NCBI RefSeq assembly: GCF_003334815.1
Contig: NZ_QOWO01000022.1
Length of the DNA stretch: 64,000 nt
Strand: one strand, 5' to 3'
Origin: Escherichia coli
GTDB taxonomy: Bacteria > Pseudomonadota > Gammaproteobacteria > Enterobacterales > Enterobacteriaceae
The translations under genes were made by a program, and so were the position numbers. This document shows positions 44,543 to 51,615 of this stretch, piece after piece (the first letter of the stretch is position 1; each line of letters starts with the position of its first letter). The notes below the pieces were generated by a model. The model was not told the origin of the DNA. It was given only the letters and a program-made list of their open reading frames with translations, and did no database searches.

Positions 44543-44991
44543 TTTTTCTCCGGCGTCATAAAAGACAGATGTAAACGCCCGGCTGACTGCGAGAGTGTTG
44601 CCCGCCAGGCAGTCTGGGCTTCAGTGATACGAAGGACATCAGCAAAGGTCATGTCGCGGACGTGCAGTGAGACGGGTAAGGGGAGACGGACGCCGCTGTA
44701 GCTGAACTGCTGGCCGCGCAGACGGGCCAGTTCGTTGAGCAATTCCAGGGCATCGCCTTCCCAGTCAAAGGAAACACGGTCGCTGTGAGCCTTCAGACTG
44801 CCGCCGGACTGACGCTCCGGAAGGGCTGCAGAGTAAATTCCCTGCCCCCATAGCTGATACTGCGCATGCCGGGCGACGGCGACATCAGAGGCAGCACCAT
44901 ACTTTCTGGTCGGAGCTGTATTATCCGGGGGGAGATGGCAGCCGTTCAGGCAGAGTACGGCGAGACATCCCGCAGGTATCATACGGTTCAT
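44539..44991 (-). CDS. traH: Type IVB lipoprotein TraH (DotD-like)
   Basis: 150 aa with lipobox LNGC; ATGA overlap with traI. Confidence 0.55.
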   Translation of the reverse strand: MNRMIPAGCLAVLCLNGCHLPPDNTAPTRKYGAASDVAVARHAQYQLWGQGIYSAALPERQSGGSLKAHSDRVSFDWEGDALELLNELARLRGQQFSYSGVRLPLPVSLHVRDMTFADVLRITEAQTAWRATLSQSAGRLHLSFMTPEKK

Positions 44992-45349
44992 GGTGTATTT
45001 TTCCTGAGCAGTGAAAGAAGAAAGCGTTGTGGGGAGGATTTACTGGTTCGTGTTTTTGCTGAATGGCTGGAGCACCTCAGAGGGAGACAGTGCTACCCGG
45101 ATACAAATATCGTTTGCTATCACGACATTACATTCGTTAGCTGTCGGATCCCGGAACGGTTCCACCATAAAGGCTTTGTTTTCGATATGCGTTTTATTTT
45201 TGTTAAACATGCATTTCCTCATGCGAAAATGATATGTCAGATAACAGCCAGATCAGAGGCAGCACTACAGGTCTGGCTGTGTCGTTTGATGGTCGGAAAA
45301 CGCGAGGATGCAGGTCTGGATACCCCGGTCAGTACCGGGGCAGAGATGA

Positions 45350-46552
45350 TCAGAATGTGAACTGCAGTTGTGCAACGGCACCGTAGTTGTTGTCTGTGCC
45401 TGCTATACCCGCCACATCAATATGGACGACATCAAATGGTGAGATACCCAGCCCGGCGGTGAACGCACTGCCATCATTGCTGGCCAGATTCTGGCGGTAG
45501 CCTGCACGTAACTGTGCCCATTTCCAGGCATTAAATTCAGCACCAATGGCAGCAAACTGACGTTTACTGTCTGATGTGAAGCCACTGGCCGGGGTCAGGT
45601 CAACATCCAGTGCTGTAGTGAACATGTCGTTGTGCCAGGAGACACCGGCAGTCACCTGCGGGCGGATCCTGAAAGTTTCTGTGACACCGTTCACTTCCTT
45701 TGTCTCAATACTGCGGGGGAGCAGGTTCTGTGCGACCAGACCCAGTGTCCAGTTGTCATCCAGGTCCATGCTGGCCCCGATATCAGCGTTAATGCCGTTT
45801 CTGGTGTTGTGGTAACGGTCGCCTTTGAAAGCGCTGCTGTCGTAATTTTTAACCAGCACGTTGTAGTTAAACAGGTCAACACGCTGGAATTTTGGTGTGA
45901 AGCCCAGAGACCACTTTTGTCCGGCCGTTTCCAGTTCAGTAGCCAGAGCAATACCCACATCGGTGACCAGTGCGGCACGGGCAAAAGCCTGAGAGGTCAG
46001 TCTGTCTTTATCCACATCCTGACCGTTACTGTTTGCAATGCTTTCCAGATAGTTCAGGTCGGCATCACTGACTTTACCGTCGACACTGATCGTACCGTAG
46101 CTTTTCAGCATCAGAGCGGCAGCGAGGGTGTCACCGGGAAGAGTCGCCACAGCAGATGTTCCCACCTGTGCGTCAGCATGTGTGTGACGGAAGTCCTGAA
46201 GTCGCGTCTTCAGACGTGCAGCAGTCTGCGACACGTTGCTCTGACTGTCGATGGCACGATCAAAGGCTTTCCAGTCATCACTGATTTTGTCTGCGTTGTC
46301 ACTGATATTACCCGGATCGGACAATTGCCCACCAACGGACGGAAGCAGAAGACTGAAGTCATCTTCCGGACCGGCTTTTGTCAGCAGGGCCGGGTTTGCC
46401 AGAGGTGCCACACCGTAGTGAGAGGAGGCTACCCCGGTTCCCCCCATTGCATCATTGCGGGCTTCAAAATATGAAGTTGCGGCTGTTGAATTAAAGGAAA
46501 ATAAAACAGCAGATGCGATGAGAGTTCGGGTAATGTGCATATTCATCATCAT
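45350..46552 (-). CDS. traF: Outer-membrane beta-barrel transfer protein (TraF-like)
   Basis: Signal peptide (MNMHITRTLIASAVLFSFNSTAA), alternating amphipathic strands and a C-terminal aromatic ending ...VAQLQFTF. Start codon ambiguous (46538-46552). Symbol assigned by synteny. Confidence 0.5.
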   Translation of the reverse strand: MMMNMHITRTLIASAVLFSFNSTAATSYFEARNDAMGGTGVASSHYGVAPLANPALLTKAGPEDDFSLLLPSVGGQLSDPGNISDNADKISDDWKAFDRAIDSQSNVSQTAARLKTRLQDFRHTHADAQVGTSAVATLPGDTLAAALMLKSYGTISVDGKVSDADLNYLESIANSNGQDVDKDRLTSQAFARAALVTDVGIALATELETAGQKWSLGFTPKFQRVDLFNYNVLVKNYDSSAFKGDRYHNTRNGINADIGASMDLDDNWTLGLVAQNLLPRSIETKEVNGVTETFRIRPQVTAGVSWHNDMFTTALDVDLTPASGFTSDSKRQFAAIGAEFNAWKWAQLRAGYRQNLASNDGSAFTAGLGISPFDVVHIDVAGIAGTDNNYGAVAQLQFTF

Positions 46553-46641
46553 TTCAGTTTCCTGGTTTGAGGTGTTTTGGGTACAGCAACGGTATGACAC
46601 GACTGTGCCATTAAAAATTTATTGGTTTTTTCTCTGCGTTA

Positions 46642-47463
46642 TTACCAGGGTAATAACGGTATACTGAATAACTCAGCAGGTAATATTTTTCCTGTCATCA
46701 GATATTCTGCCTGTGCCGGACGAAGCGTTACGGTCCGGACGGATGTCTTTGCATATAAATTGCGGGCAGTGTGAAACCAGTTTTCTTTTTCCTTATTCAT
46801 TCTTACAGGTGATAAAGAAAGTACAGGATAAATGATGGCTTTATTAATTTCTTTTTTCTTGCGGAACAGTACACCGCAATATTCCTGTGAATGAACACCG
46901 GCAAAAGGAAAACTGTGCCAGAGAATAATATCCACATTATCGCTGGCTGAAATAAGCTGGCAGAACGCATCCTGTGTTGCTGGCCACTCACCGGCACGGC
47001 TTAAAGGATAACGTACCCTGCCGTTCAGCCATTCCGGGTTGAGATAAAACCAGTCAGCCAGAGCCGTCAGAATCTCTCCTGTCAGATAATCTGCGAGTTT
47101 GTCCGGGTCACGGAAAACGGCAGGACGGATATTCCAGGGAGCCAGTAACGTTGTCATCGTTGTTACGCAGACATCATGTGCCTGCATGATGTGTTCTGTC
47201 CGGCAGATAAGACGGTGAACGATGTTTTCAGCCGGGAGAAACATTTCAGTTAATGCATCTTCGACCAGGATACGCGTCAGGTCGGATACAGAAAGGGAGA
47301 GTTGCTCGCTCATTATTCCGAGTGCTTCTCTGACGCCCTGCGGATAACGGATCTGCAGGGGAGTGGACTGCAACTGGCGGTTATTGAGCAGAGCTTCGCT
47401 AATCCGGGCCCTGTCAATGGAGAGCATCATGCGGGCAGCAATGCCTGTGCTGTTGGGTTTCAT
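46642..47463 (-). CDS. traE: Transfer protein TraE-like (273 aa)
   Basis: First ORF of the tra operon downstream of rci; assigned by position only. Confidence 0.4.
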   Translation of the reverse strand: MKPNSTGIAARMMLSIDRARISEALLNNRQLQSTPLQIRYPQGVREALGIMSEQLSLSVSDLTRILVEDALTEMFLPAENIVHRLICRTEHIMQAHDVCVTTMTTLLAPWNIRPAVFRDPDKLADYLTGEILTALADWFYLNPEWLNGRVRYPLSRAGEWPATQDAFCQLISASDNVDIILWHSFPFAGVHSQEYCGVLFRKKKEINKAIIYPVLSLSPVRMNKEKENWFHTARNLYAKTSVRTVTLRPAQAEYLMTGKILPAELFSIPLLPW

Positions 47464-47722
47464 TTCACCTCCGTGCGGTTCATATGTTAAGTCTAAAGAG
47501 CGTGTTTACTGAACGGAAACGAGTTATTTCGATCGTTATGATCGAGTGTGTTTCAAGAGTGCTTTTAACTCTGTTTTAAGCGTGAATGAAAAGGATTCGG
47601 ACAGGACGTGATTTAGCATGCCGCTGGTCTGGCATTATGCTGCAGAGCAGACGGAGTCAGGAGATTGAAAGTATTTCGTTATATAATCTTTTCCTTTTCG
47701 GGATGAAATCAACGAGGTTCGT

Positions 47723-48043
47723 ATGAAAATTAAACAGCATAAAGAAAAACTGGAGATTATAAGGGATATTATTCGAGAGACGCTGTTGGGTAATGCTGCT
47801 CTTATTGTTCTGGCAGCCATGGTTCCGGTTGTACTGGTGAAACCATGGGATTCGATGACATTTATTTTTATGGGGGCCGTGTGTGTTTCTTTTGCAGTCA
47901 TTCTGTTCTGGCTGGTTTATATAGTTTGTTTGTATATAGGAACGCTTGTAAAGAATATTTTTATAAGGATTTTTGCTTTTTCTATTTGGGCCCTTTCTGC
48001 TGAGGGGGCAATTATTTATAACATGATAAAGATATTATCATAG
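47723..48043 (+). CDS. Hypothetical small membrane protein (106 aa), AT-rich
   Basis: Plus-strand ORF with three hydrophobic segments between traE and rci. Confidence 0.35.
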   Translation: MKIKQHKEKLEIIRDIIRETLLGNAALIVLAAMVPVVLVKPWDSMTFIFMGAVCVSFAVILFWLVYIVCLYIGTLVKNIFIRIFAFSIWALSAEGAIIYNMIKILS

Positions 48044-48134
48044 AAAAGTTGTTTATATATTGGCTCTATGTAAAAAGAATGGTACCTCTGCCAGAGTCCC
48101 CGGCGTTATTTTTATGTGTTGGGGCCATGAATGT

Positions 48135-48455
48135 TTATTTGGCATCCCTTATCTCGCCCATCAGCAGGCGGATACGCAGCCAGGTGTCATGATCCAGAAC
48201 AGGTGATGGTGTTACCATGCAAGCACAGTGCCCGGTGACGAGCGTATCAAGGAAGCGTTTTGCATCGCTGGCACTTTCATATTCACCAGTATGGATCAAC
48301 ATCCACCTTTGCCCCAACGCTGATTCGGTGTGAATTGGTTGCGAGAATGCGATTGTGTAAACGTCTTCAATTGTAACGATACGATTATTATCCGCAGTGG
48401 CTGCACGGGAGGATAAGTGTTTCATAAAGGGTCTCATAGCGTTAATTTTGAACAA
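48135..48455 (-). CDS. Hypothetical protein (106 aa) immediately downstream of rci
   Basis: ORF 12 nt after the rci stop, same strand; no motif. Confidence 0.35.
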   Translation of the reverse strand: MFKINAMRPFMKHLSSRAATADNNRIVTIEDVYTIAFSQPIHTESALGQRWMLIHTGEYESASDAKRFLDTLVTGHCACMVTPSPVLDHDTWLRIRLLMGEIRDAK

Positions 48456-48466
48456 AAATTATTTGT

Positions 48467-49636
48467 TCAGGAGGAGGATATGAAAATACTGTTCGCTTTT
48501 GTCATGAACTGGCTGTTTGTTAACGGACAAATCATGACCCGTTCATCAATGTTTGCGGGTAGCTCGCCTGGTGTGGGGACGCGTTCACCCCGCTGAGCAG
48601 CCTGGGCCAGTGCGCGCAGCAACAATACGCTGGCGTGAGATATTGCCAGTTCCCGGGTTTCAGCACGGCTTTCAAGGTCGAAATCGTGCAGTGTCACAAT
48701 GAACACTCCGTTTCTGTTTCTGACAGTTGCAGGGTAGGGAACAAAATAAGGGGAAATTTTGCTGGTCTGTTTACGCCTTGCATCGAGTTTACTGACCAGG
48801 TGATATGCCCGGAGATGTGTGTACCGTTTCAACATGTTCAGGGAGCGGTGACCGGAAATGGCTGCAATCTCCATAACGTTCAGTGTGCCGAGCTCGAACA
48901 AACGGCTGATGGCCTCATGGCGGAGATCGTGAAAATGCAGATTTTCTATTTTCAGATCCAGAAGAGTGGTACGCCAGGCGCTTTTGAAACCGGACGAGGT
49001 GTAACTGAACACATTGCCGTTTATCTGTTGTGGCAGAATTTGCAGGTAGTTACGTGCTTTCCGGGAGAGTGGGACATCGCGTGGTGAGCCATTTTTCGTT
49101 TCAGGAAGATGCGCCACGCCGTGCTGCAAATCGAGGTGTTCCCAGCGTAATGAGAGAATTTCTCCCTGGCGCATTGCTGTTTCCAGAGCCAGATGGAAGA
49201 TAACGTAGAGCTGCGGATTTTTGTCCCTGAAATAGCGGGAAAGGCGGCGTTCTTCACCAGAAGTCAGTCGGCGGTCGCGGCCATTACTGATTTTCGGTTT
49301 TCGGACCAGTTCAACAGGATTCATACGGCATGTTCCCCATTCCACACGGGCGATATTGAATAATGATGATAAAAGGGCAAGTTCAAGACGGACGGTATTT
49401 CCGGTGATTTGACGCCCTGTTCGTGGGTTAATTTGAGCTAAACGCTGATCCCGGTAACTGGCGATATCAATGGTAGTGATTTCATCCATATAGCGATCGG
49501 CCATAGGGTGACGTTTAATCACATTGACGCGATAAAACTCCTGCAGATGACCTTTTTTATGGACGGAAACAGTCTTCAGGTATTTGTCCAGTGCCCGGCT
49601 GAGGGACATTTTGCGAGTTTTGTTTTTTTGAAACAT
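48467..49636 (-). CDS. rci: Shufflon-specific tyrosine recombinase Rci
   Basis: Start [29 protein letters not shown] with a GGAAGG RBS; the longer track ORF would run into sfx site S1. Tyrosine-recombinase catalytic motifs ([17 protein letters not shown]). Adjacent to the sfx repeats. Confidence 0.85.
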
Positions 49637-49698
49637 ATCTGCCTTCCACGATAAAAACGGGGAAGGTAGGAGGCTGGATACAGAAATGCAATACTTTC

Positions 49699-49717
49699 GT
49701 GCCAATCCGGTGTCTGG
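49699..49717 (+). repeat. sfx recombination site S1 (gtgccaatccggtgtctgg)
   Basis: Exact 19-mer shared with S2; followed by an 81-codon open frame in the PilV fusion frame. Confidence 0.7.
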
Positions 49718-49985
49718 CGGTCAACTGAAATTAAATTCACAACGCAGACCTATAACATCGGAAAAAATATTCGTAATTTCAGACTTGGTGTCCATGCATA
49801 TTGTGCATGGACGTATCTTAATGGTTCTCCTTTCGGTGGTTTTCAGCAGGTTTATTCCGATAAAAATAATGTCTGGTATGTCAATAATTATGCGTGGGGT
49901 AATTATGAGTCAGGTGGAACGATATCTGTTACGTGTCTCAATATACCTGGGGCCGGTATTTAATTAAGCGTCAGGCAGTAGCCAG

Positions 49986-50004
49986 CGTGCCAATCCGGTG
50001 TCTG
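49986..50004 (+). repeat. sfx recombination site S2 (gtgccaatccggtgtctgg)
   Basis: Exact 19-mer; followed by a 79-codon open frame in the PilV fusion frame ending at TAA 50242-50244. Confidence 0.7.
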
Positions 50005-50250
50005 GAAGAATAATATCAGCGATGCACTGGTTTTTGATTATTCGGCCTGTTATGACGCAGAAGAAGACTCCAGAAAACCGGTTTATGCGAACTGGGGTAG
50101 TGGCTCAAACGGCTTTGCCGTCTGTGACGGCAAAGCAGGCTATGGTGCGGCAGGATTCAGAGCGTACAGAGGTAAACCGGGGTATTCGGGAAGCATGGTC
50201 TGGGTCAAAATACGTTGCTGTAAGTTAAAAGTTAATACGCCTTAAATGCA

Positions 50251-51615
50251 TCAGCTTGCTTTGACGATGTAGTTAAAGGCAATGTTTTTGGGGCGCATTT
50301 CCGTTGTGCTTCCCTGGGCCCAGTAAGGCATACCGCTGTGATGCCCTTTCAGCCATCCCCCACGCTCATGATAGACACCGGATTGATCGGCCTGATAACT
50401 CAGGAGATGTCTGTTCCGATCTCCATCCAGCCCACGTCCGTTGTCCCAGCCACGGATAAAAACACCGCGCAAATCCGGCAGCTTACACCCGGGATAAGCA
50501 CGGGCAAGCTGAGGATACCGGGAACATGAAAATGACTGCCCGTTCATCACCAGGTAGCCTTGTGGAGGGGTGGCTGATGGCCACGGTATAGGGCTTCCGA
50601 CAGGGTAGGATTCAAAACCTGCCCACATACCGGATTGGCACGAAAGTATGGCCCCTGTACTGGTGCGGCCTACAAGTCCGTCCGGTGAACACTTTGTGCC
50701 TGCCGTAGCTGTTTTATCAAGCTGTAAATACTCCCCGGTTGAAAGACGACCGTCAGACCGGACTGTACCACCACTGACTTTCCCCCCTTTGATTTCCCCG
50801 GTGGTTGTGATGCCTTTGCCATTAACCGCGCGTATCCACTGGCTGTCCGTCATGGTGAATCCACCACCATGTGTGATATTCATCCATCCCTTATTGTTTC
50901 TGGTGATTAGCCAGCCGTCTTCACTCGTAATATCACCTTTCAGTGTGGCACTCTGACCATTGATATTGCCGGTGTTGTTTATGTTATTCCCGCCCATATT
51001 TATTGCAGTATGCATCTGATTCAGTTCAGGACGACCTGCTACCTGAAAACGGTAGAGACGGTCACTTTCCTGCAGGTCATCACCGCTCATGACGACGGCG
51101 ATGTGACCTGTCGAACAGGTAAGTCCGTAGTCTCCCGGTTTATCTGTCCAGGCTCCGAATGCGCCTGTTGCCGTTCCGTTTTTGCTGATAAATCCACCCA
51201 GCCCCGGCAACTGACCCGCCACACTACGCAGCCCTTCTTCTTTGATTGTCTGCCCTCCAGTTGAGCAGGTCAGGGCTTCCAGACGCCCGGTGGTCTGGTT
51301 ACGGCGGATACCGGTGATATAACTCTGACCAAACGGAGAATGGTTAAACCCCTGTTTCAGATATCCCTGACGAATCAGATCATCAGCCGTGAAATTTGCC
51401 GGAAGGCTGCCGCTATGCAGACGGGCATTGTTGTCGGCAATATAGTTTCTGGCTGCGGTATTGTAGGCATCTGCATGATATGCAGCACTCTGGTAAAGCT
51501 GCTCATTCAGCCAGTTTTCAATTTCTGAATAAATCATTGGTGTGGCGATACCGATCACAATCAGTCCGGCCAGAATTTCAAACAGAACAAAACCTTTATC
51601 GTCGTCTTTTTGCAT
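50251..51615 (-). CDS. pilV: Thin-pilus minor pilin/adhesin PilV (current shufflon isoform)
   Basis: Start MQKDDDKGFVLFEILAGLIVIGIA is a type IV prepilin-like N-terminus; the track ORF begins further upstream inside pilU. C-terminal 130 aa lie within the invertible region. Confidence 0.8.
   Translation of the reverse strand: MQKDDDKGFVLFEILAGLIVIGIATPMIYSEIENWLNEQLYQSAAYHADAYNTAARNYIADNNARLHSGSLPANFTADDLIRQGYLKQGFNHSPFGQSYITGIRRNQTTGRLEALTCSTGGQTIKEEGLRSVAGQLPGLGGFISKNGTATGAFGAWTDKPGDYGLTCSTGHIAVVMSGDDLQESDRLYRFQVAGRPELNQMHTAINMGGNNINNTGNINGQSATLKGDITSEDGWLITRNNKGWMNITHGGGFTMTDSQWIRAVNGKGITTTGEIKGGKVSGGTVRSDGRLSTGEYLQLDKTATAGTKCSPDGLVGRTSTGAILSCQSGMWAGFESYPVGSPIPWPSATPPQGYLVMNGQSFSCSRYPQLARAYPGCKLPDLRGVFIRGWDNGRGLDGDRNRHLLSYQADQSGVYHERGGWLKGHHSGMPYWAQGSTTEMRPKNIAFNYIVKAS
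50371..50389 (-). repeat. sfx-like site S3 (degenerate; cgatcaatccggtgtctat on the pilV strand)
   Basis: 13-bp core caatccggtgtct conserved, flanks diverged; encodes DQSGVY inside the current PilV tail. Confidence 0.45.
50623..50641 (-). repeat. sfx site S4 at the end of the PilV constant region (gtgccaatccggtatgtgg on the pilV strand)
   Basis: Right arm gtgccaatccggt identical to S1/S2; encodes CQSGMW in the pilV frame. Confidence 0.65.

Follow-up and report, generated by a model that had tools for sequence, protein, structure and literature searches.

The junction between traE and rci in a 64,000-nucleotide stretch of Escherichia coli DNA (hereafter the window; contig NZ_QOWO01000022.1 of RefSeq assembly GCF_003334815.1) appears to be a small recombination hot spot, at which recombination shuffles gene modules of conjugative plasmids. 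In the window, the interval between traE and the shufflon recombinase gene rci holds two small open reading frames (ORFs). The first, on the plus strand, is by its sequence a member of the ArtA family of F-plasmid "anti-tra" membrane proteins, and the second, a minus-strand ORF here called S, appears to derive from the core of a secretion ATPase. In our best explanation, which we consider probable though far from certain, a recombination-prone slot between the pil/shufflon/rci and traE-traJ blocks holds two unrelated modules that are gained and lost separately, and the artA-like gene and S are independent cargo, not parts of the shufflon or pilus. A preliminary description of this DNA had treated the two ORFs as orphan genes and had left open whether they were shufflon or pilus accessories or unrelated cargo. 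The orphan label suits neither ORF, one being an ArtA family member and the other a probable derivative of a secretion-ATPase core, and of the two readings cargo is favored, since one or both genes are missing from I-complex plasmids whose rci, shufflon, and pilV are intact.

Positions 46600-49800 of the window were 99-100% identical to dozens of complete E. coli plasmids typed as IncK2/Z, which is part of the IncB/O/K/Z ("I-complex") group and has a mating-pair formation system of type I (MPF-I) and the MOBP class. The gene order in the matching records was traF, traE, hypothetical protein (plus strand), hypothetical protein (minus strand), site-specific integrase (rci), shufflon, and pilV, with the same layout in the window. 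Both ORFs were annotated as hypothetical proteins in more than 100 complete plasmids, and the exact protein sequence of each was found on at least 1000 contigs. The plus-strand ORF (47723-48043), described earlier as encoding a membrane protein of 106 amino acids (aa), has that length, starts with ATG, and encodes a hydrophobic protein. The minus-strand ORF described at the same length is also present (48135-48455), but it reaches 106 aa only from a TTG codon, and the conserved ATG at 48425, which is also the RefSeq start, yields 96 aa (MKHLSS...). The AT-rich gap beside a recombinase was likewise borne out, with a GC content of 0.37-0.42 over 47450-48200 vs. 0.50-0.57 in traF and traE and ∼0.50 in rci, which adjoins at 48467. 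Coordinates of all features are collected in Table 1.

Table 1. Features of the traE-rci junction and its surroundings, in positions of the window.
Feature	Position	Strand	Remarks
traE (273 aa)	46642-47463	-	left border of the slot; TraE annotation in 100%-identical records
Conserved traE upstream region	47464-47620		backbone, not cargo; common to all I-complex variants examined
Variable accessory segment (∼901 bp)	47614-48514		two independent modules (probable reading); blastn breakpoints vs. L003, L004, L006, L007, L008, and L012
artA-like gene (106 aa)	47723-48043	+	three-helix inner-membrane protein (predicted); transcribed against traE and rci
S module	48096-48514	-	small ORF, flanks, and 15-codon rci extension; present or absent as a unit
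S, small soluble ORF (96 aa)	48135-48425	-	alternative starts ATG 48437 and TTG 48455 (106 aa)
rci 3' extension (15 codons + stop)	48467-48514	-	only in plasmids with the S module
rci, shufflon tyrosine recombinase (389 aa)	48467-49636	-	right border of the slot; annotated site-specific integrase
Shufflon, three sfx-like repeats	49688-49717, 49986-50005, 50623-50652		first two direct, third inverted and inside pilV

Comparison with related plasmids revealed sharp limits of the variable segment. The blastn breakpoints placed the left backbone end at ∼47613-47669 and the right end precisely at 48515, where the rci of plasmids without S (374 aa) has its last sense codon. An alignment of five plasmids was near-invariant up to ∼47607-47620 and diverged beyond. 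The whole 1-kb interval was common to ∼130 plasmid records, and ∼300 more matched only 47478-47621. Regarding conservation in related elements, the genes were kept in ∼130-200 records and missing from many close relatives. Six states of the slot were seen among related plasmids: both genes present, as in the window; the membrane protein gene alone, at 48% identity (pECOED); a frameshifted membrane protein gene with the small ORF (pSTEC2018_553-a); an unrelated 181-aa ORF with a 61%-identical small ORF (pESBL3156 and p1106); an IS3 element; and an empty slot, in which the rci end lies ∼47 bp from the conserved traE upstream region, replacing 901 bp (pSH262-2). Additionally, pSTEC636_2 had the small ORF without an intact membrane protein gene, and an unannotated ArtA-like stretch remained there. 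In IncI1 pESBL, traE ends at 17905 and rci starts at 18056, leaving a gap of 150 bp (PMC4288162). Some related plasmids had also lost rci and the shufflon.

The flanks of the slot were recombined as well. In pYZLc23-1, a window-type artA-S-rci segment with 0-1 synonymous differences was joined to a traE at a synonymous divergence (dS) of 0.69, while pESBL3156 combined the window-type traE (99.7%) with another rci and another small ORF and had no membrane protein gene. The 181-aa ORF (L003 2251-2796; L020 2931-3476) takes the place of the artA-like gene on the opposite strand in some IncK2/Z plasmids, and that of pESBL3156 had no Pfam or NCBIfam match. The slot resembles the cargo hot spots of the I-complex backbone in its sharp homology breaks beside conserved backbone, its alternative unrelated inserts, and its low GC content. 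It differs from them in being only 0.9 kb long, in having no resistance or virulence genes and no recognizable mobile-element ends, and in that an 87-bp duplication of the rci 3' end encloses one of its modules in some plasmids.

The right-hand module consists of S together with its flanks and the end of rci. Homology of this module started at 48096 with L004 and L008 and at 48131 with L003, and in L006, L007, and L012, which have no S, homology resumed exactly at 48515. Rci has 389 aa in the window vs. 374 aa (ending in ...MICPLTN) in pECOED and pSH262-2, and the homology breaks at the ancestral rci stop codon. S was always directly downstream of rci, 11-41 nt past its stop. In pSTEC636_2 and pSTEC2018_553-a, a copy of window positions 48515-48601 (87 bp of the rci 3' end, 93% identical) lies just beyond S (L004 2858-2944; L008 4627-4713), and the module is therefore bracketed by direct repeats in those plasmids. 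Insertion by a single crossover or a replication slip would be expected to leave such repeats. One database protein, P0047, is a fusion of an S-like N-terminus with the displaced rci tail.

This constant attachment of S to rci and to a particular rci 3' end, together with the position of the slot next to the pil operon, is what speaks for both genes being accessories of the shufflon or thin pilus, with S as an Rci cofactor and the membrane protein as a pilus-assembly helper. We consider this explanation very improbable, and it is largely refuted already by the distribution of the genes. Plasmids with intact rci, multi-segment shufflons, and pilV miss S, the membrane protein gene, or both: in pECOED, pSH262-2, and IncI1 pESBL, rci, shufflon segments, and pilV are present and S is absent, and in the latter two the artA-like gene is absent too. 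Because shufflon and pilus systems exist without either gene, we do not regard the two as shufflon or pilus components. Moreover, ArtA homologs are found in F-type and VirB-type systems, which are without a shufflon or a type IVb pilus, and S evolves neutrally while rci is strongly constrained, as detailed below. In IncI1 pESBL, transfer did not require traE, traF, or rci according to transposon sequencing (PMC4288162).

Nor are the two genes a pair, because they are convergent and each was found alone. This argues against a two-gene system with a small soluble protein in control of a membrane toxin or abortive-infection effector, an idea that draws on the proximity of a small hydrophobic and a small soluble protein in AT-rich DNA and on the word "toxin" in database records. 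Convergent genes would not be co-transcribed, no PADLOC or PHROG match and no phage homologs were found, and the "toxin ArtA" label appears to go back to a confusion with a Salmonella ADP-ribosyltransferase whose features are absent here. Of the explanations considered, we regard this one as hardly credible. Instead, independent cargo modules in a recombination-prone slot account for the distribution of both genes, and the two are discussed separately in the following.

The plus-strand gene has a GAGG Shine-Dalgarno sequence 6 nt before its ATG, and its assignment to the ArtA family was supported in both search directions. BLASTP against F-type ArtA gave 35% identity over 91 aa (E 2e-13), tblastn with the plus-strand protein gave weaker matches in F-like plasmids at a gene annotated as "toxin ArtA" or "protein ArtA", and reverse tblastn with F-type ArtA recovered the IncK2/Z genes among 1475 plasmid records. 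The exact sequence of the plus-strand protein is already named ArtA in UniRef. An alignment of seven family members had 11 invariant positions (I13, R14, I16, I17, L22, G23, N24, A26, W63, Y71, and W89), with an N-terminal motif KLEIIRxIIRE[T/S]LLGNAA, beyond which the sequence is hydrophobic and variable. An AlphaFold2 model placed helices at residues 2-39, 44-75, and 79-105 (mean predicted local distance difference test score, pLDDT, 82), and Kyte-Doolittle maxima reached 2.7-3.0 for segments ∼22-39 and 45-72, the third helix being more amphipathic. From hydropathy and charge distribution, the protein probably spans the inner membrane three times with the N-terminus inside and the C-terminus outside. 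In a fold search of AFDB50, the only significant matches were family members, including a 100%-identical Salmonella entry named "Toxin ArtA", and the remaining matches (E ≥ 0.4) were generic helical proteins. The protein had no match in Pfam (even at E ≤ 10), NCBIfam, PHROGs, or PADLOC, and none of these libraries has a family for ArtA. A phage origin was rejected, as tblastn gave no match in 50,697 phage records at E ≤ 1. Many artA-like entries in the protein database are truncated, and these are mostly labeled partial.

The gene is clearly coding and under purifying selection that is strongest on the N-terminal helix. The ratio of non-synonymous to synonymous substitution rates (dN/dS) was 0.22-0.53 where dS was unsaturated; between families, synonymous sites were saturated. 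In the N-terminal 27 codons, the proportion of synonymous differences (pS) was 0.47 and that of non-synonymous differences (pN) 0.03 between the window and pECOED, and the values were pS 0.86 and pN 0.20 between the window and F ArtA. Given that N-terminal pN is far below pS, this helix is the constrained part of the protein, and we propose that the cytoplasmic, amphipathic N-terminal helix would be its selected and functional part.

ArtA of the F plasmid is a protein of ∼104 aa, encoded between trbA and traQ, that has been known for 35 years. Wu and Ippen-Ihler reportedly named the gene in 1989 for its anti-tra orientation, and they are said to have found that it has its own promoter and is expressed independently of the tra operon. 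Insertion mutants of F artA were reportedly transfer-proficient in a 1991 study by Kathir and Ippen-Ihler. In the literature searched, we found no functional study of F ArtA beyond citations of the 1991 work of Kathir and Ippen-Ihler. The window protein shares with F ArtA the family size of 104-113 aa, the three hydrophobic helices, and the conserved KEKLEIIRxIIRE[T/S]LLGNAA sequence together with W63, Y71, and W89, and each gene is embedded in a conjugative transfer region and runs opposite to the transfer genes there. It differs in being only 35% identical, in its host type IV secretion system (T4SS), which is I-type (Dot/Icm-like) rather than F-type, and in its position between traE and rci instead of inside a long tra operon, where it is optional within its own plasmid group. 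In F-like plasmids, the ArtA-like genes were found between traQ and trbA/traF in antisense to the tra operon, and according to a comparative study artA accompanies trbA and trbG in a subset of these plasmids (PMC5102898). An unannotated 107-aa ArtA-like ORF (L013 3998-4321) was also observed in antisense between a virB5-like gene and virB4 on a 39-kb MOBP VirB-type E. coli plasmid, and ArtA relatives are therefore present in three MPF classes.

F-type and IncK-type ArtA are labeled "toxin ArtA" in GenBank, RefSeq, and UniProt (e.g., L008 4001-4222; L015 4001-4315). This label appears to be an annotation artifact that arose from a name collision with ArtA of the Salmonella ArtAB toxin, with which the window protein has only the name in common. 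Salmonella ArtA is a pertussis-toxin-S1-like ADP-ribosyltransferase, a secreted A subunit of ∼240 aa, whereas the protein encoded in the window has 106 aa, is a polytopic membrane protein, and contains no Pfam domain.

Four of the five contexts examined, spanning three MPF types, had the ArtA-like gene running opposite to transfer genes. Because it is transcribed against the neighboring transfer genes, we presume that a promoter of its own would drive it, separately from the tra and pil transcripts. Furthermore, since members of this one family are present in the transfer regions of MPF-I, MPF-F, and MPF-T systems, the N-terminal helix may contact a partner common to many plasmids or to the host. 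The protein would then be an accessory, not a structural component of the T4SS, pilus, or shufflon, and would be non-essential for DNA transfer; the absence of the gene from related conjugative plasmids of the I-complex bears on this indirectly. Several observations sit uneasily with this account. A sigma-70 consensus scan found no promoter upstream of 47723, where a TATAAT at 47682-47687 lacks a properly spaced -35 element. A terminator scan found hairpins inside coding sequence only and no convincing bidirectional terminator between the convergent genes. One homolog, in pSTEC640_3, was co-oriented with non-transfer genes, and anti-tra placement is accordingly not universal.

The anti-orientation in most contexts could also indicate that the locus acts by transcription, its opposing promoter insulating against or attenuating transcripts that run on from pil/rci into traE, or in F along the tra operon, with the ORF being incidental. 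We deem this very improbable in view of the purifying selection on the protein, very strong in the N-terminal helix; in addition, no consensus promoter or terminator was found, and one homolog is co-oriented with its neighbors. An 88-aa ORF on the minus strand at 47635-47901, antisense to the artA-like gene and without a family match, is probably an artifact of the AT-rich sequence.

S was more difficult to trace. Searches of both ORFs, traE, and the 88-aa antisense ORF against NCBIfam, Pfam, PHROGs, PADLOC, and Rfam yielded only DUF818 and phrog_13717, at E values of 0.078-0.22 that we took as noise, and there was no Rfam match. A word-indexed search with S returned only 11 clusters, all from E. 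coli and 58-94% identical, in which the N- and C-terminus were conserved and the middle was divergent, with a 3-codon in-frame indel. An exhaustive hidden Markov model (HMM) search of 1.84 billion representative proteins, among which the S family is very rare, yielded, besides fragments, two distant but full-length relatives, P0052 (83 aa, E 6e-10) and P0056 (106 aa, E 2e-4). The top HMM matches (P0043-45, P0053-55, and P0058, 1.6-5 kb repeat proteins with 17-54 matched stretches) were rejected as repeat-summed artifacts because of these many stretches; the one sequence inspected, P0053, is that of a cadherin-like tandem-repeat protein. The P0052 gene lies directly after a TrbI/VirB10 gene, and the P0056 gene, in a T4SS cluster, overlaps a VirB11-like (T2SSE) ATPase gene at the start of the latter. 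P0056 could be aligned to this neighboring ATPase over the stretch from Asp box through His box (E 2e-7), and when searched by itself it matched Pfam T2SSE (PF00437, 7.7e-4). It also has a Walker-A-like tail, RLNVILRGKTGKGKTS, after the His-box region (L017 1746-2066). Compared with the VirB11-like gene next to it, this order is permuted, which hints that P0056 arose by partial duplication. A 38-aa fragment with 60% identity to the N-terminal half of S was observed just before traX in an F-like plasmid of Serratia marcescens (L010 5031-5147).

Profile searches pointed to the same protein class. Against the PDB, an S-family profile that included P0052 and P0056 matched CpaF (1.2e-4), PilT (9e-3), VirB11 (0.035), and PilU (0.2). 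With P0056 included, eight of nine matches were secretion ATPases, the other being a terpene synthase (E 1), and without P0056 all six were, at weaker E values for CpaF (0.039), VirB11 (0.25), and PilT (0.44). An hhalign comparison of the S family, again without P0056, with an alignment of TraJ, PilQ, and the VirB11-like protein gave a probability of 91% (E 1e-6, 72 columns). Weighing against this ancestry, the E. coli S alleles alone had no PDB match and reached an hhalign probability of 29%; because these alleles are not significant by themselves, the link to ATPases is transitive and rests on P0052 and P0056. It is nevertheless consistent, and S probably originated from the Asp-box/Walker-B/His-box core of VirB11/CpaF/TraJ-type ATPases. 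The TraJ and PilQ encoded by the plasmid itself were rejected as recent sources of S, both scoring ∼3 bits against the S profile.

In alignment with the VirB11/CpaF/PilT/TraJ (DotB) ATPases, S corresponds to TraJ residues 185-277 (RIVTIED..., ...GE..., TGH...). These ATPases have 320-500 aa, compared with 96 aa in S, which is without the N-terminal domain and Walker A and in which ∼17 residues are deleted between the Asp box and Walker B. The Walker A P-loop (GxxGxGKT/S) was absent from all S alleles: S begins just past the Walker A position and therefore has no P-loop. The remaining motifs are partly degraded. The Asp box reads RIVTIED in the window allele and RIVTGRD in others, Walker B reads TGE in the window allele and TGN in others, and in the His box the first His is invariant while the second is replaced by Pro (TGHxxCMVTPSP). 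A GEIRD sequence at the C-terminus of S was considered as a displaced Walker B and rejected, since it is not conserved among alleles. Given that Walker A is lost and the catalytic residues are not conserved, S is predicted to be unable to hydrolyze ATP. We therefore picture S as a descendant of the RecA-like core of a VirB11/CpaF-type secretion ATPase that would be catalytically dead.

Whether such a remnant is still selected was assessed with rci and traE from the same plasmid pairs as internal controls. The dN/dS of S was 0.79-1.19, compared with 0.09-0.13 for rci and ∼0.2 for traE; the S ratio differed from that of rci (Fisher p = 5e-8) and did not differ from the neutral expectation (p = 0.66). 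Between the window and pYZLc23-1, S had 0 synonymous and 5 non-synonymous changes. By region, with small counts, dN/dS was 0.1-0.2 for codons 1-18, 1.0-1.3 for codons 19-63, and 0.6-1.1 for codons 64-96. The frame was open in the six complete alleles compared, but in a simulation of 62 random substitutions 21% of sequences stayed open, and because of this, frame retention is weak evidence of coding constraint. Truncated alleles were common, including two 60-aa forms (P0077 on 149 contigs and P0080 on 18) and the truncated or frameshifted alleles P0046, P0048, and P0051. The Shine-Dalgarno sequence of S was weak, and an AlphaFold2 model built on a 9-sequence alignment was not confident (pLDDT 38.6). 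Most likely, S is a relic hitch-hiking on rci or at best a weakly selected protein, and it would not be needed for shufflon inversion.

Three observations argue for some function and thus count against S as a mere relic: the low dN/dS of its first 18 codons, a dN/dS of ∼0.4 between S and P0052, and the common N-terminal boundary and derived His-box change (TGHxxC/S..TPP/SP) of S, P0052, and P0056, which come from three unrelated contexts. They could be accommodated if S were a functional, fast-evolving pseudo-ATPase miniprotein that mimics the protomer surface of hexameric secretion ATPases. Such a protein would modulate the plasmid's own TraJ/PilQ, or the VirB11 of a co-resident competitor (fertility inhibition), and its variable middle would reflect diversifying selection. 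The small architecture and N-terminal and His-box features common to the three contexts, two of them beside VirB10 or VirB11 genes, fit this proposal, as do the intact ORF in all six complete alleles compared with its in-frame indel, the contrast between N-terminal codons and the middle in dN/dS, and a promoter-like site just upstream of S (9/12 matches in the sigma-70 consensus scan). On the other hand, the overall dN/dS of S is indistinguishable from 1, truncated alleles are found on more than 160 contigs, and the poor model, weak Shine-Dalgarno sequence, and rarity of the family also speak against it. We regard this proposal as possible but doubtful, and a relic or near-neutral passenger as somewhat likelier than a functional fast-evolving miniprotein.

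More speculatively, S-like loci occur downstream of rci in the window, in metagenomic plasmids beside virB10 or virB11, and in the Serratia plasmid, where a fragment lies near traX. S might then be one of an undescribed group of truncated, dead VirB11-like miniproteins that move between T4SS loci as poison or regulatory subunits, for instance in fertility inhibition, with a hypervariable middle under diversifying selection. We consider this unlikely, and the relic on rci remains our preferred reading of S.

The backbone around the slot showed further features. The 157 bp upstream of traE were near-invariant across I-complex lineages, though traE itself had a dS of ∼0.7 and, between lineages, a dN/dS of ∼0.2. 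This region contains a palindrome, TTCGATCGTTATGATCGA, at 47528-47546, perfect-looking in a hairpin scan, and it may serve as a promoter or operator for traE. On the other side, rci had weak XerC/XerA-type NCBIfam matches, and the shufflon was compact, its sfx-like repeats having the common core GTGCCAATCCGGT. Further away, traG was absent between traH and traF in this plasmid. The 358-bp gap (44991-45350) holds a 60-aa ORF on the minus strand (45040-45222; annotated in RefSeq as a hypothetical protein of 56 aa) at the position where IncI1 pESBL encodes a 195-aa TraG.

Our understanding of the shufflon and of I-type conjugation mechanisms is unchanged by these results, and their value lies mainly in annotation, as hundreds of IncB/O/K/Z records read "hypothetical protein" and some carry the misleading "toxin ArtA". 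The ArtA assignment is already present in automatic annotation, under that misleading name and without discussion in the literature searched, while the ATPase ancestry of S and the mosaic map appear to be new and of specialist interest. The map marks the traE-rci junction as a recombination breakpoint, which is useful for typing IncK/B/O/Z backbones. The artA-like gene ties I-complex plasmids to the ArtA family, now found in three T4SS classes, and its conserved helix is a target for mutagenesis. S, if its proposed ancestry holds, is an example of a secretion-ATPase gene fragment that has survived as a small ORF linked to rci and, if functional, it would represent a new type of T4SS modulator.

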